Part shown: positions 2,611 to 11,303 of the stretch, piece by piece
Layout of the letters: each line of letters begins with the position of its first letter
Numbering within the stretch: position 1 is the stretch's first letter
Source: Candidatus Baldrarchaeum yapensis
Lineage (GTDB): Archaea > Asgardarchaeota > Baldrarchaeia > Baldrarchaeales > Baldrarchaeaceae
Direction of reading: 5' to 3'
NCBI GenBank assembly: GCA_016840465.1
Contig: JAEOSH010000041.1
Location: 1-21,152, forward strand
DNA: 21,152 nt
Notes under the pieces: generated by a model
Database searches by the model: none
The model's input: only the letters and a program-made list of their open reading frames with translations
What the model was told of the DNA's origin: nothing
Translations under genes and position numbers: made by a program

Positions 2611-3540
2611 TTATATTAACTCATACAGGCTTGGAAGATTCTCCCGAGGGATTCTCCTGACTCTGCCCAACTTCTCCAGCGCTATCAGGTACGCCTTGAC
2701 CACGCTTCCCATCCAGATCTTTTGTCTCCAAATTTTGGATTTGTATAGTTCGTTTACAAGTTGTTTGACGGTCTTGGGGCCCTCCTTGAGGTGCTCCAAT
2801 ATGTCCTTCATGCGCGAAAGCTTCTTTTGCCGGTTTTCCTCTATTATCTCCTTAGGTTCCATTATGATTGGGCCGTGCGCGGGATATATTACCGAGATAT
2901 CCAATTTCTTCAGCCTTTCGAGGGAGTCCAAGTATAATAGTACATCCCCATCCGGAACCCCGATCCATGTGCTCATGCCCTTCAGCACGGTGTCCCCGGA
3001 GAATAGTATTCCCTCATCCGGCTGGTAAAGGCAGACATGGCATGGACTGTGCCCCGGCGTGTGTATCACGCGGAACTCATATCCGCTAACCTCAATTACA
3101 TCCCCGTCTTTGACGGGAACGTCGATATTTGTCTCCCTCGCCCCACACATTCCAGTAAGGTACTCTTTTACGAAGATATCCGCATCTTTTCCCCGCAATA
3201 TCGTGTACTTCTCAACATATTTCTTAAAGTCGCCAAGAAGAGGTGCGGCATATTCGTGTATTGCGATGGGGACCCCGTATTTTTCCTTGAGAACCGTACT
3301 CCCAGGAAAGTGATCTGGGTGCGCGTGGGTGTTGAGGACAAGCTTCAGGTTGCGCACTCCTCCGGCGTACCTATTAATCTCTCCCAATATCTTTGATATC
3401 GACTGGTTGAGGCCGTAGGCGGAGTCTACGAGGATCCAGTCCCTCCGCCCGATTAGGTATACGTTGACATCGACCCTAAAGTCCCCGGGGCTTTCAACAG
3501 CAATCATCCTTATATTGAGGTCTCCGGCCATGGCGACCAC
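2611..3540 (-). CDS. Metallo-beta-lactamase-fold hydrolase with C-terminal winged helix (LACTB2-like architecture)
   Basis: THAHPDH (HxHxDH), HTPGHS, FSGD and PAHG motifs, followed by a wHTH-like tail (PKTVKQLVNELY...YLIALEKLGRV). Confidence 0.9.
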   Translation of the reverse strand: MVAMAGDLNIRMIAVESPGDFRVDVNVYLIGRRDWILVDSAYGLNQSISKILGEINRYAGGVRNLKLVLNTHAHPDHFPGSTVLKEKYGVPIAIHEYAAPLLGDFKKYVEKYTILRGKDADIFVKEYLTGMCGARETNIDVPVKDGDVIEVSGYEFRVIHTPGHSPCHVCLYQPDEGILFSGDTVLKGMSTWIGVPDGDVLLYLDSLERLKKLDISVIYPAHGPIIMEPKEIIEENRQKKLSRMKDILEHLKEGPKTVKQLVNELYKSKIWRQKIWMGSVVKAYLIALEKLGRVRRIPRENLPSLYELI

Positions 3541-3589: not shown

Positions 3590-4579
3590 TTATTTATCAT
3601 TCGATCTTGCCGCGACATATCTTGTGCCGTAAAGATACCTCGCCATTTCAGAAATCCCGTCGGCGAGGGAGTACTTCGGCTTAAATCCCAAAACCTCGCT
3701 AGCCCTTCGGATGTCGGCACAACTTCTCCGGATGTCCCCCGTTCTTGGAGGCCTGTGCAATATCGGCACGTTCTCCGACTTCGAAATCATCCTTCTCATG
3801 AGCCTTGCCAGTTCCAGAATGGGAGTTTCCCTCCCGGATCCCACATTGAACGTCATCCCGGCAGATGTGCTGGCGTTCCTGAGTGCTAGTAGCGTGGCCT
3901 TCACCACATCCTTCACATATACGAAGTCTCTGGTCTGCATCCCGTCACCAAATATCTCTAAGGGCTTGCGGGATATGAGCCTGCGTAGGAATATGGAAAT
4001 GACGCCGCTGTATTGCCCCCCGTCCTGTCTCGGCCCATAAACGTTAAAGTATCTAAGGGTGACGGTCTTCATCCCGTAGACCCTGTAGTAGGCATAGCAG
4101 TACTGCTCGGCGGCCGCCTTGGATGCACCATACGGTGATATCGGCCTTAGCGGGTGACTTTCGGGTATTGGTATTGTCTCGGGCTCTCCGTAAACCGCGC
4201 ACGACGAAATGAATATAAATCTTTCAACGTCACATTTTCTTGAAAGCTCTAGGATGTTGAGCGTCCCCCCGACGTTAATGTCATTGGTGAGGTGGGGGTT
4301 TTCAACCGAAAGGGGCACGCTCACGACCGCCGCTAGGTGTATCACCGCTTCTACGTCCCTCATTACGTGTACATTCGAGAACCTTCTGATATCATCCCTC
4401 AGGAACACTATTGCGCCGTTCTCGATATGATGCCTTATGTTCTCTATTTTCCCAGAGAAGAGATTGTCCAAAACGATGACGTGCACCCCGCACTCTACAA
4501 GTGTATCCACTAGGTGACTTCCAATAAAGCCCGCGCCACCAGTAACCAAAACGGATGTGGGGAGCCCCCTAACGCTCAT
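3590..4579 (-). CDS. NAD-dependent epimerase/dehydratase (extended SDR, UDP-glucose 4-epimerase-like)
   Basis: TGGAGFIGSH, HLAA, SSCAVYG, YGASK (YxxxK), LRYFNVYGPRQ and GDGMQTRDFVYV motifs. Confidence 0.92.
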   Translation of the reverse strand: MSVRGLPTSVLVTGGAGFIGSHLVDTLVECGVHVIVLDNLFSGKIENIRHHIENGAIVFLRDDIRRFSNVHVMRDVEAVIHLAAVVSVPLSVENPHLTNDINVGGTLNILELSRKCDVERFIFISSCAVYGEPETIPIPESHPLRPISPYGASKAAAEQYCYAYYRVYGMKTVTLRYFNVYGPRQDGGQYSGVISIFLRRLISRKPLEIFGDGMQTRDFVYVKDVVKATLLALRNASTSAGMTFNVGSGRETPILELARLMRRMISKSENVPILHRPPRTGDIRRSCADIRRASEVLGFKPKYSLADGISEMARYLYGTRYVAARSNDK

Positions 4580-10595: not shown

Positions 10596-10802
10596 CTACT
10601 CGTATACCTTTTCCTCCTCCAAATGGAATCCGACCATGTCCCTCTCAACGTCCCTTCTTTTCTCCCAGTAGGCCGGGGTCTAGCATCTCCCTGTACAGTT
10701 CGTGCTGTATTATTGCCCTCATGATCTCGTTGGTTCCGGTCCATATGAGCCCGAGCCTGCAGTCCCTCAGATACCTCTCTACTGGGTAGACGGTCGTGTA
10801 CC
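10596..10802 (-). pseudogene. Acyl-CoA dehydrogenase C-terminal remnant (frameshifted)
   Basis: An unlisted frame reads [40 protein letters not shown], the typical ACAD C-terminal helices. A one-base shift near 10655-10665 separates it from a plausible tail [19 protein letters not shown] (stop 10596-10598). Confidence 0.85.
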
Positions 10803-10842
10803 GTTCTTCCACTTGGTAGCATTCAGCAATTTATAGTAATTT

Positions 10843-10997
10843 TCAGCCACCAAGTGGGCCATCACGGCTCCCGGTCGCTCCGCCCCGCCTTACCCAGCCC
10901 ATCCCGTGCGGTCGCCCGCACGCTCACCGGACTGGTTCGGCGAAGCGGAACCCACCAGTACTCATCAACCTCGTCCTCTTCATCGGCCTCGACCTGA
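10843..10997 (-). ncRNA. Candidate extended box C/D-like structured RNA (about 155 nt, possibly extending to 10809)
   Basis: GC/G-rich island flanked by AT-rich DNA. C-like boxes CCGAUGA and UUGAUGA, hairpin 10959-10931, perfect hairpin GUGCGG-GCGA-CCGCAC (GNRA loop), D' CGGA / C' GUGAUGG K-loop, 12-nt spacer, D CUGA (10846-10843). BRE-TATA upstream. Confidence 0.55.
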
Positions 10998-11017
10998 CCG
11001 AATAATGGAGCGATACC

Positions 11018-11031
11018 ATTTAAACTTTTAC
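11018..11031 (-). promoter_or_regulatory. BRE-TATA promoter (GTAAAAG-TTTAAAT) upstream of the GC-rich RNA candidate
   Basis: TTTAAAT at 11024-11018 preceded by a purine-rich BRE-like segment. The spacing seen at other promoters in this window predicts a TSS near 10997. Confidence 0.55.
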
Positions 11032-11077
11032 GAAAATGTCTGAAAATTACTTAAACCGAAAACTGTTTCAGACCCCC

Positions 11078-11303
11078 CTATTTCTTCGATCGCGGCAACC
11101 TCGGCGACCCAGGTCGCTCCCCTTCCCCCGTACTCTGGTGGGAATCTCAAGCCCAGCAGTCTTCTTTCCGCGGCCATCTGTATAAATTCCTTTGGGAATT
11201 TTACTTCCTCGCGTTCCATTTTCCTTATAAGTTCGGGGTCGATCGACCTCGCAAACTCCTGCGCCTCTTCCTTTATCTTTCTCTCCTCAGGCGTTAGCAA
11301 CAC
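11078..11303 (-). pseudogene. Acyl-CoA dehydrogenase N-terminal remnant (truncated)
   Basis: LLTPEERKIKEEAQEFA...FPKEFIQMAAERRLLGLRFPPEYGGRG...AAIEEIG is the ACAD N-terminal domain. Similarity stops after EIG; the frame runs into AT-rich non-coding sequence and ends at 11028. Confidence 0.88.

Follow-up and report, generated by a model that had tools for sequence, protein, structure and literature searches.

A protein-less miniature of an archaeal TnpB-type transposon carries a conserved, promoter-driven RNA in Candidatus Baldrarchaeum yapensis

The stretch of DNA analyzed here (the window) comprises 21,152 nucleotides (nt) of contig JAEOSH010000041.1 from Candidatus Baldrarchaeum yapensis (GCA_016840465.1), and all coordinates given without a further label refer to it. 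On its minus strand, the window carries a protein-less miniature of a TnpB-only archaeal transposon, which has kept a conserved, promoter-driven, kink-turn-rich RNA. This identification is based on observations of the repeat status of the element, its derivation, the conservation and covariation of the RNA, its strand, its promoter and its border, as well as on the fold of the protein encoded by the full-length form. An initial annotation had taken positions 10843-11031 for an atypical box C/D ribonucleoprotein (RNP) RNA that recalls U3. What remains of this proposal is that the structured RNA gene is real, has an archaeal promoter of its own and contains C/D-type kink-turn boxes, whereas the assignment to an atypical C/D RNP or a U3-like RNA had to be given up. 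Also the extent was revised: the scaffold runs to 10800, and the whole is a multi-copy element that spans 10800 to ~11073. The initial annotation had named an IS200/IS605 end RNA as an outcome that would speak against it, and this is essentially what was found, in that the RNA forms the end module of a transposon of the TnpB type, of which the window copy is a protein-less miniature. The element consists of the following parts:

10800..11073, minus strand: the whole protein-less transposon copy of ~275 bp, made up of End A, the promoter and the RNA module, which ends at End B
11031..11073, minus strand: End A, the left end on the RNA strand, starting with GGTCTGAAACAG... and aligning to L018:1501-1544 and L022:3528-3571 of related loci
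11015..11030, minus strand: archaeal promoter with a B recognition element (BRE)-like AAAAG at 11029-11025 and the TATA box TTTAAAT at 11024-11018
10800..10999, minus strand: structured RNA scaffold of about 200 nt, with a start near 10999 as suggested by the TATA spacing and a 3' end that coincides with the transposon border

A BLAST search against the window's own genome (G000; 96% complete, 100 contigs) revealed that 10800-~11073 is a repeat unit, of which G000 holds at least four full and two contig-end copies at 83-99% identity. These include C68:36606-36881 (designated C68a; 96% identity), C68:25160-25400 (85%; internally deleted), C63:5131-5455 (83%; longer by 52 nt), and pieces at the ends of C83 and C32 (98-99%). 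A lone left-end fragment is present on C80, after which no recognizable TnpB-like open reading frame (ORF) follows. All copies have GGTCTGAAACAG... at the left and ...GAGAACGGT at the right in common, and the sequence differs directly outside, whereby the left border is ambiguous by 1-3 G. In metagenome contigs from four runs, the element has a depth 3-13x that of its flanks, and the loose ends of contigs stemming from other insertion sites fall at 10798-10801 and 11071-11077. Neither target-site duplications nor terminal inverted repeats were found in the element, and its two ends differ from each other.

The origin of this repeat became apparent from the related genome G004 (Candidatus Baldrarchaeota), which harbors a full-length element of 1.45 kb. 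Here, the same left end (44 nt) and the promoter-plus-RNA part lie 1.19 kb apart and enclose an ORF for 345 amino acids (aa) on the opposite strand, the stop codon of which is located inside the left end, so that End A of the full-length element overlaps the stop codon and the tail of a tnpB-like gene on the other strand. Metagenome contigs that carry the tail of the tnpB-like ORF join the window sequence at 11033, and the full-length form with the ORF tail is present in run X1. The window element is thus an internal-deletion miniature of a full-length TnpB-type transposon, in which the ends, the promoter, and the RNA were kept and the nuclease gene was lost. As in non-autonomous derivatives such as miniature inverted-repeat transposable elements (MITEs) and palindrome-associated transposable elements (PATEs), two ends of a larger element are fused by internal deletion, the product is multi-copy, and it contains no ORF. 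The C63 copy represents a second, independent deletion, which has kept the last ~14 ORF codons and more of the spacer. Both deletion derivatives retain the promoter and the RNA.

The 345-aa protein (P0001) matches the TnpB-related NCBIfam models TIGR01766, TIGR01765, and guided_TnpB. A precomputed Pfam assignment places it in PF27229. Its 148 relatives, with lengths of 310-365 aa, come from Thermoproteota, Archaeoglobi, Asgard, and other archaea, and the family is archaeal and rich in thermophiles. Residues D195, E259, and H324 are invariant in the family, with the histidine being situated in the RuvC-III motif, and neither a zinc finger nor Cys clusters were found in it. An AlphaFold2 model of the protein (pLDDT 86) matched the Cas12f and TnpB ternary complexes 8j12, 8h1j, and 8exa best and over its whole length (E = 1e-8 to 1e-10, probability 1.0, TM up to 0.64). 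In this predicted structure, the fold is complete for RNA-guided Cas12f/TnpB nucleases, including the parts that hold the guide-target duplex. From its sequence, the protein fits the description of clade RIIIr-4, which is characterized by an exchange of the RuvC-III Asp to His and the lack of a zinc finger and includes archaeal RHH/MazE-TnpB (Altae-Tran et al., PNAS 2023; PMC10691335). No RHH/MazE gene was found alongside the elements studied here.

Eighty loci anchored on the TnpB-like protein were fetched, and a covariance model (R1) was run on 83 loci. The protein-anchored loci present a TATA box followed by CGAnnCCGAUGA...GAGGnnGAUGAG...UUCGCCGAgGGGAG...CUCCCGyAGnnGGG..., about 200 nt upstream of the ORF and on the other strand. 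R1 gave 72 matches in the 83 loci. Nearly all of them fall on the minus strand, where they precede the ORF start by 180-450 nt and are divergent from the ORF; a few matches are lone extra copies. Matches were obtained in 68 of the 80 protein-anchored loci, across archaeal phyla, and the window copy scored 111 bits. Within Asgard archaea, R1 matched 9 of 151 genomes of the phylum, namely all five of the window's order and four in two other families, and this patchy distribution suits a mobile element. Near full elements of Desulfurococcales, extra lone or tandem RNA modules were noticed (L059:3685-3853 and 4263-4449; L069:1362-1568; L089:912-1071 and 2872-3031), which indicates that orphan RNA modules are common outside Asgard archaea, too.

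A 31-sequence alignment (A2, MAFFT/RNAalifold), which is independent of R1, yielded a consensus with compensatory changes in 16 of 22 pairs. In the later 72-sequence alignment, standard pairs are formed by 92.2% of the cells, compared to 67.0% after shuffling and 44-56% when the 3' partners are slid by 1-3 columns, and 344 cells are changed on both sides versus 106 in the control; this alignment was fitted to R1, and the independent A2 result agrees with it in direction. Double changes occur at 19 of its 23 pairs, a count that is not significant on its own as it is reached by 66 of 500 shuffles. Several U.G pairs are nearly invariant (68 of 69 at one position). Since they would be A.C on the other strand, the RNA strand is the minus strand of the window. 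The folding energy of the window stretch (163 nt) is -79 kcal/mol, with z = -3.8 against shuffles. Apart from this RNA, the element showed no conserved RNA.

The reading of BRE and TATA given in the initial annotation (AAAAG-TTTAAAT, 11029-11018) was confirmed, and the promoter recurs in the family: in 64 of 72 relatives versus 23 of 191 control windows, a TATA-like hexamer precedes the start of the model by 20-50 nt, and this hexamer mostly follows an A-rich BRE-like stretch. A run of five T was not found inside the RNA of any of the 72 relatives, nor does a conserved terminator follow it, with such a run lying within 60 nt in only 7 of 68. In related elements, the similarity ends directly after the last paired base (...AACGGU). 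With no terminator and a border at the last paired base, the transcript would therefore run into the flank, as in the geometry of TnpB omega RNA.

Within the scaffold, three structured regions can be distinguished:

10962..10990, minus strand: 5' K-loop or back-to-back kink-turn module, GA-GGCC-GAU-GA-AGAGGAC-GA-GGUU-GAUGA, with GGCC/GGUU as helix P1
10877..10951, minus strand: central domain with helix P2 (10951-10939 with 10889-10877), helix P3 (10935-10928 with 10901-10894), and an apical GNRA hairpin (10922-10905)
10800..10868, minus strand: 3' kink-turn module with the C-stem GCCGU/ACGGU (10868-10864 with 10804-10800), the bulge GAU, GG opposite GA (10806-10805), and a hairpin
10858-10846 with 10820-10808, minus strand: the non-canonical-stem hairpin of the 3' module, with the arms CCCACUUGGUGGC and GCUACCAAGUGGA

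The 5' module forms a stem, the inner side of which carries a K-loop and the outer side GA motifs of the kink-turn type. Its helix P1 covaries, and its four motifs are kept in most of the family (GA 67/72, GAUGA 51/68, GA 62/68, GA 62/71). The two C-like boxes that had been annotated earlier, CCGAUGA (10986-10980) and UUGAUGA (10968-10962), are indeed present in this part. In the central domain, the 13-bp helix P2 encloses P3 and the GNRA-capped tip in the minimum-free-energy as well as in the centroid fold. P2 and P3 are 93-96% paired, show compensatory changes in 12 of 14 pairs, and contain near-invariant U.G pairs. The perfect GUGCGG-GCGA-CCGCAC hairpin at 10921-10906 was likewise read correctly before. 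A hairpin suggested for 10959-10931, however, is not kept even in the copies C68a and C63, and its 3' half CCAGUCC pairs with the downstream GGGCUGG in P3. Similarly, a K-loop of GGGGCGGA with UGAUGGCCC found no support and is not conserved; GGCGGGGCGGAGC pairs with the upstream GUUCCGCUUCGCC in P2. A further helix that would join the P1-P2 linker to the G-rich stretch behind P2 was considered and rejected, since only one more pair, which extends P2, was supported.

The last 5 nt of the RNA form the closing stem of the 3' kink-turn, exactly at the transposon border. In the family, the 5' GA of this module is kept in 64 of 66 and the 3' GA in 53 of 69 sequences. The C-stem covaries (CG 32, GC 32 and similar), with sequence groups GCCG/CGGU, GGGU/ACCC, GGAG/CUC, and GGUGG/CCAC. 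Overall, the arrangement of a canonical stem, a 3-nt bulge, and tandem sheared G.A/A.G pairs, which characterizes kink-turns and K-loops, is kept as a pattern in the 72 relatives. In Sulfolobales members (L098, L090, L089, L099), the boxes of the terminal motif are canonical (GUGAUGA and CUGA). The hairpin enclosed by this motif in the same four members has a second CGAUGA...GUGA pair, which from its sequence is possibly an extra kink-turn. Of 65 relatives, 61 have a predicted 3' hairpin, the 5' arm of which occurs in 59 different versions. This changes the meaning of the order GUGAUGG, CCCACUUGGUGG, CUGA, which had been noted before and is present in the window. The 12-nt spacer CCCACUUGGUGG is the 5' arm of the conserved hairpin, with its 3' arm ACCAAGUGG at 10816-10808, and not a single-stranded guide. 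CUGA (10847-10844), the presumed D box, sits in the loop of the 3' hairpin, and it is the GA at 10806-10805 that partners the GUGAUG box.

With regard to mobility, the ends were inspected for repeats and target preferences. One repeat was recognized in the window copy:

10835..10849 (loop of the 3' hairpin) with 11037-11051 (End A): subterminal inverted repeat of 15 nt, 93% complementary

Analogous End A/End B repeats are present in L038 (16 nt; 2180-2195/3532-3547) and L025 (13 nt; 2171-2183/3509-3521). No such repeat was detected in the five other elements, so that three of the eight examined have one. Judging from the sequence, it could be a protein-binding site that is shared by both ends. 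The left flanks end in GGG in five of six Baldrarchaeia copies, and several Thermoproteota relatives have G runs in the left flank, too; subgroups ending in ...ACCCU or ...ACCAC show no GG. Based on these six sites, the asymmetric ends, the lack of a target-site duplication, and the short fixed adjacent motif correspond to what is seen in IS200/IS605 or IS607 elements. For IS607 elements (CboIStron), a GG/TGGG target has been described that doubles as TnpB adjacent motif (PMC10690162), and the GGG left flanks resemble this target. Only 2-3 of the 80 loci have a resolvase-like gene at a distance of up to 2.5 kb, and this gene lies outside the element, so that no serine-recombinase TnpA belongs to the element itself. 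G000 does contain IS607-type units with a serine recombinase and an ordinary zinc-ribbon TnpB (C96:26410-27886, C96:32162-33626, C23:938-2628, C55:21253-21648). These resident elements were considered as source or mobilizer and rejected since there is no end similarity to the element. The left flank of C68a (C68:36580-36606) reads GGTGAACGGA, which is a near-match to the right-end terminus GAGGUGAACGGU of the family. This hints at an insertion beside an older end remnant or at a target that mimics the element end.

The window copy lies within a host gene, of which two fragments remain:

11085..11303, minus strand: N-terminal fragment of an acyl-CoA dehydrogenase, the host gene (Pfam Acyl-CoA_dh_N, E = 9e-13, profile positions 1-69 of 113)
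10645..10797, minus strand: C-terminal fragment of the same gene (Pfam Acyl-CoA_dh_1, E = 9e-7, profile positions 117-148 of 150)

The first ~73 and the last ~50 codons have survived; between them, ~250 codons are missing, and the transposon copy occupies exactly this gap. As the flanks encode only the N-terminal 73 and the last 50 residues, ~250 codons were replaced by the element, and since the copy fills the gap of the missing codons, the deletion came with or after the insertion. The left junction falls in a GGGGGG (Gly-Gly) run. By its sequence, the acyl-CoA dehydrogenase gene in the window is a pseudogene.

Concerning the function of the RNA, we regard it as reasonably probable that it is the guide scaffold, in the manner of an omega RNA, of the zinc-finger-less TnpB-like nuclease, that it is read into the flank, and that it is bound by L7Ae. 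In such a mechanism, the RNA would be transcribed from its own TATA box, and the transcript, having no terminator of its own, would pass the element border. The RNA would then serve as an omega-RNA-like scaffold of the nuclease and the adjacent flank as its guide, the GGG motif 5' of End A could represent the transposon-adjacent motif, and L7Ae would probably bind the kink-turns. The guide would accordingly be sought next to End B:

10780..10799, minus strand: putative guide segment, the flank directly 3' of the scaffold, if the RNA acts like an omega RNA

As is the case for omega RNAs, the RNA shares its mobile element with a gene for a TnpB-family nuclease (model matches in 68 of 80 protein-anchored loci). 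Several observations weigh against a guide function. In canonical systems, the omega RNA overlaps with the 3' end of tnpB in the same orientation and is excised from the tnpB mRNA, whereas this RNA lies upstream and antisense and has its own TATA box. The cognate protein gene was not found in the 96% complete G000 by searches with P0001 and profile A1, and the RNA would for this reason be an orphan in this genome. Y1 TnpA (PF01797) was not found in G000 or G001-G004, the five RNA-carrying Baldrarchaeia genomes, the assemblies of which are incomplete. In addition, the second sheared pair of the 3' kink-turn contains G in place of A in the window copy and in C68a (GG versus the consensus GA), and the 3' hairpin of the window copy starts with a C.A mismatch at its base. 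By analogy to C/D small RNAs (sRNAs), it could also be that the RNA is trimmed to the kink-turn stem, which would leave no guide. A more far-reaching version of the guide-scaffold reading is tentative and, to our mind, rather doubtful as a whole. It would have the RNA serve a zinc-finger-less, His-type TnpB clade as guide RNA, expressed from its own opposite-strand promoter and assembled into a TnpB-RNA-L7Ae complex, with orphan miniatures that might supply guides in trans or be open to domestication.

The guide scaffold has to be weighed against three other explanations. It might be that the transposon encodes an L7Ae-bound kink-turn RNP that is trimmed to its terminal stem and has no guide, acting as a regulator or co-factor of the element, e.g., as a scaffold that stabilizes the TnpB-like protein, as a decoy, or in the marking or synapsis of the transposon ends. 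A terminal C-stem with a kink-turn defines the mature ends of archaeal C/D sRNAs, and the same architecture is present here together with two or three kink-turn-type motifs; moreover, the subterminal inverted repeat ties the 3' hairpin loop to End A, and orphan copies persist without the nuclease gene. Nevertheless, we consider a guide-less RNP unlikely, as the protein has the full fold of an RNA-guided nuclease, including the parts for the guide-target duplex, the element shows no other conserved RNA, and a scaffold that ends at the border without a terminator corresponds to the omega RNA geometry. The structure could also work mainly as DNA, that is, as a folded single-stranded or protein-bound transposon end that is recognized by a transposase, whereby the promoter-like box would be incidental. 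Ends of the IS200/IS605 type carry subterminal hairpins, the 3' hairpin covaries as DNA hairpins also do, both ends have a 13-16-nt inverted repeat in common in three of eight elements, and the whole module was retained by both miniature derivatives. However, a structure of ~200 nt with four covarying helices goes far beyond known end hairpins, near-invariant U.G and sheared G.A pairs are features of RNA that would be A.C mismatches on the other strand, BRE/TATA is located at a fixed distance in 64 of 72 relatives, and Y1 transposase was not found in the five element-carrying genomes. Therefore, a role at the DNA level appears quite improbable.

The third alternative corresponds to the initial annotation, i.e., an atypical cellular C/D (U3-like) RNP that pairs with pre-rRNA via the 5' GGUCAGGUCGA and/or the spacer CCCACUUGGUGG. 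The C-like boxes and the D-like GA are real, and a terminal stem that closes a C/D kink-turn exists, but both of its strands lie within the last 70 nt and the window copy has GG for GA. A search of the whole window against Rfam yielded no family at the gathering threshold, as had been anticipated for an undescribed RNA. Under lax settings, the best hits were the C/D sRNAs sR45 (14.6 bits versus a gathering score of 40) and sR41 (11.3 bits), a likeness below threshold and at chance level. The scaffold is about 200 nt long instead of 50-70 nt, its boxes are more than 100 nt apart, and the presumed 12-nt single-stranded guide is a helix arm in 61 of 65 relatives. Because almost all relatives have a different sequence in this arm (59 versions in 65 sequences), the spacer is unable to target a conserved rRNA site. 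The pairing of the spacer with 16S rRNA that had been put forward finds no counterpart either, as its complement does not occur in the assembled part of the 16S gene (model positions 706-1467). Genome-wide, the spacer complement occurs at chance level or inside element copies; one site with one mismatch lies on the rRNA contig, which is within chance given 15 such sites in the genome, nine of them in element copies. The 5' leader is not conserved in the family, with columns 1-8 of alignment A3 varying freely, which argues against a conserved rRNA target. In addition, the RNA belongs to a multi-copy mobile element instead of being a cellular gene with a single copy, its linkage to a TnpB-like gene is seen across archaeal phyla (68 of 80 loci), and it occurs in only 9 of the 151 Asgard genomes searched. 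These data already contradict a cellular C/D or U3-like RNP, for which we see hardly any chance. As a side observation, only the 3' half of the 16S gene is assembled in G000 (C59:75-838), in two matches split at 193/198, and the 5' half is missing.

If the guide-scaffold reading is true, a large archaeal TnpB clade would have its guide RNA upstream and antisense, under the control of its own promoter, where it would have escaped surveys in which only the sequence downstream of tnpB is aligned. A mobile RNA-guided system would then be seen to use the L7Ae-type kink-turn recognition of its host. In the more far-reaching version, this would constitute a second, independent OMEGA organization and a natural link of C/D-type RNP architecture with RNA-guided DNA nucleases. 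It would also be of practical interest since a compact (345 aa), thermophile-derived nuclease would gain a defined guide scaffold with separable expression. The window also serves as a warning that similar islands of a promoter plus a GC-rich RNA in Asgard and Thermoproteota genomes are transposon modules and not new cellular noncoding RNAs. Full-text searches of the literature revealed no upstream, antisense, promoter-driven, or kink-turn-bearing RNA described for TnpB, and a paper on RNA immunoprecipitation sequencing of L7Ae does not mention transposases.

Among known systems, the closest comparison is the TnpB omega RNA or reRNA of OMEGA systems (ISDra2, IS605/IS607), reportedly described by Karvelis in 2021, Altae-Tran in 2021, and Meers in 2023. 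Both are structured RNAs of 150-250 nt at one end of a TnpB transposon, both have a scaffold that ends at the border with a predicted read-out into the flank and a partner with the TnpB/Cas12f fold (8h1j, 8exa), and in both cases protein-less miniatures retain the RNA. Unlike omega RNA, the RNA described here is placed upstream of the nuclease gene on the opposite strand, has its own BRE/TATA, and holds kink-turn and K-loop motifs of the C/D type, and its use as a guide is inferred. Archaeal C/D sRNAs combine a terminal C/D kink-turn with an internal C'/D' K-loop and assemble with L7Ae, Nop5, and fibrillarin. With these sRNAs the RNA described here shares a RUGAUGA-like box that is paired with a (C/G)UGA-like GA by a terminal stem, and a K-loop formed by GAUGA...GA. 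It differs from these sRNAs of 50-70 nt in its length of about 200 nt, in motifs that are more than 100 nt apart, in the lack of 12-nt single-stranded guides and of conserved target complementarity, and in being mobile and linked to TnpB. The protein of the full element agrees with clade RIIIr-4 in its invariant RuvC-III His, the missing C4 zinc finger, and its archaeal occurrence, and differs from the RHH/MazE-TnpB listed there in that no RHH/MazE gene accompanies the elements (PMC10691335). That survey sought guides downstream of tnpB (in a "long untranslated 3' region"), and makes no mention of an upstream divergent RNA. The lack of a target-site duplication and of terminal inverted repeats and the insertion beside GG/GGG are in common with the IS607 family (PMC10690162), and IS607-type recombinases are present in G000. 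In contrast to IS607, the recombinase lies outside the element and is adjacent in 2-3 of 80 loci, the ends show no similarity to resident IS607 copies, some subgroups (...ACCCU, ...ACCAC ends) have no GG, and subterminal inverted repeats exist. PATEs and other MITE-like, protein-less derivatives of IS200/IS605 and IS607 elements, in which omega RNAs are still encoded, resemble the window element in having ends fused by internal deletion, multiple copies, no ORF, and a retained RNA module. The window element stands apart from PATEs by its own promoter and in that neither the cognate nuclease gene nor a Y1 transposase was found in G000. Taken together, the feature is a variant of OMEGA/TnpB guide-RNA modules and their miniatures and not a new class of cellular RNA.

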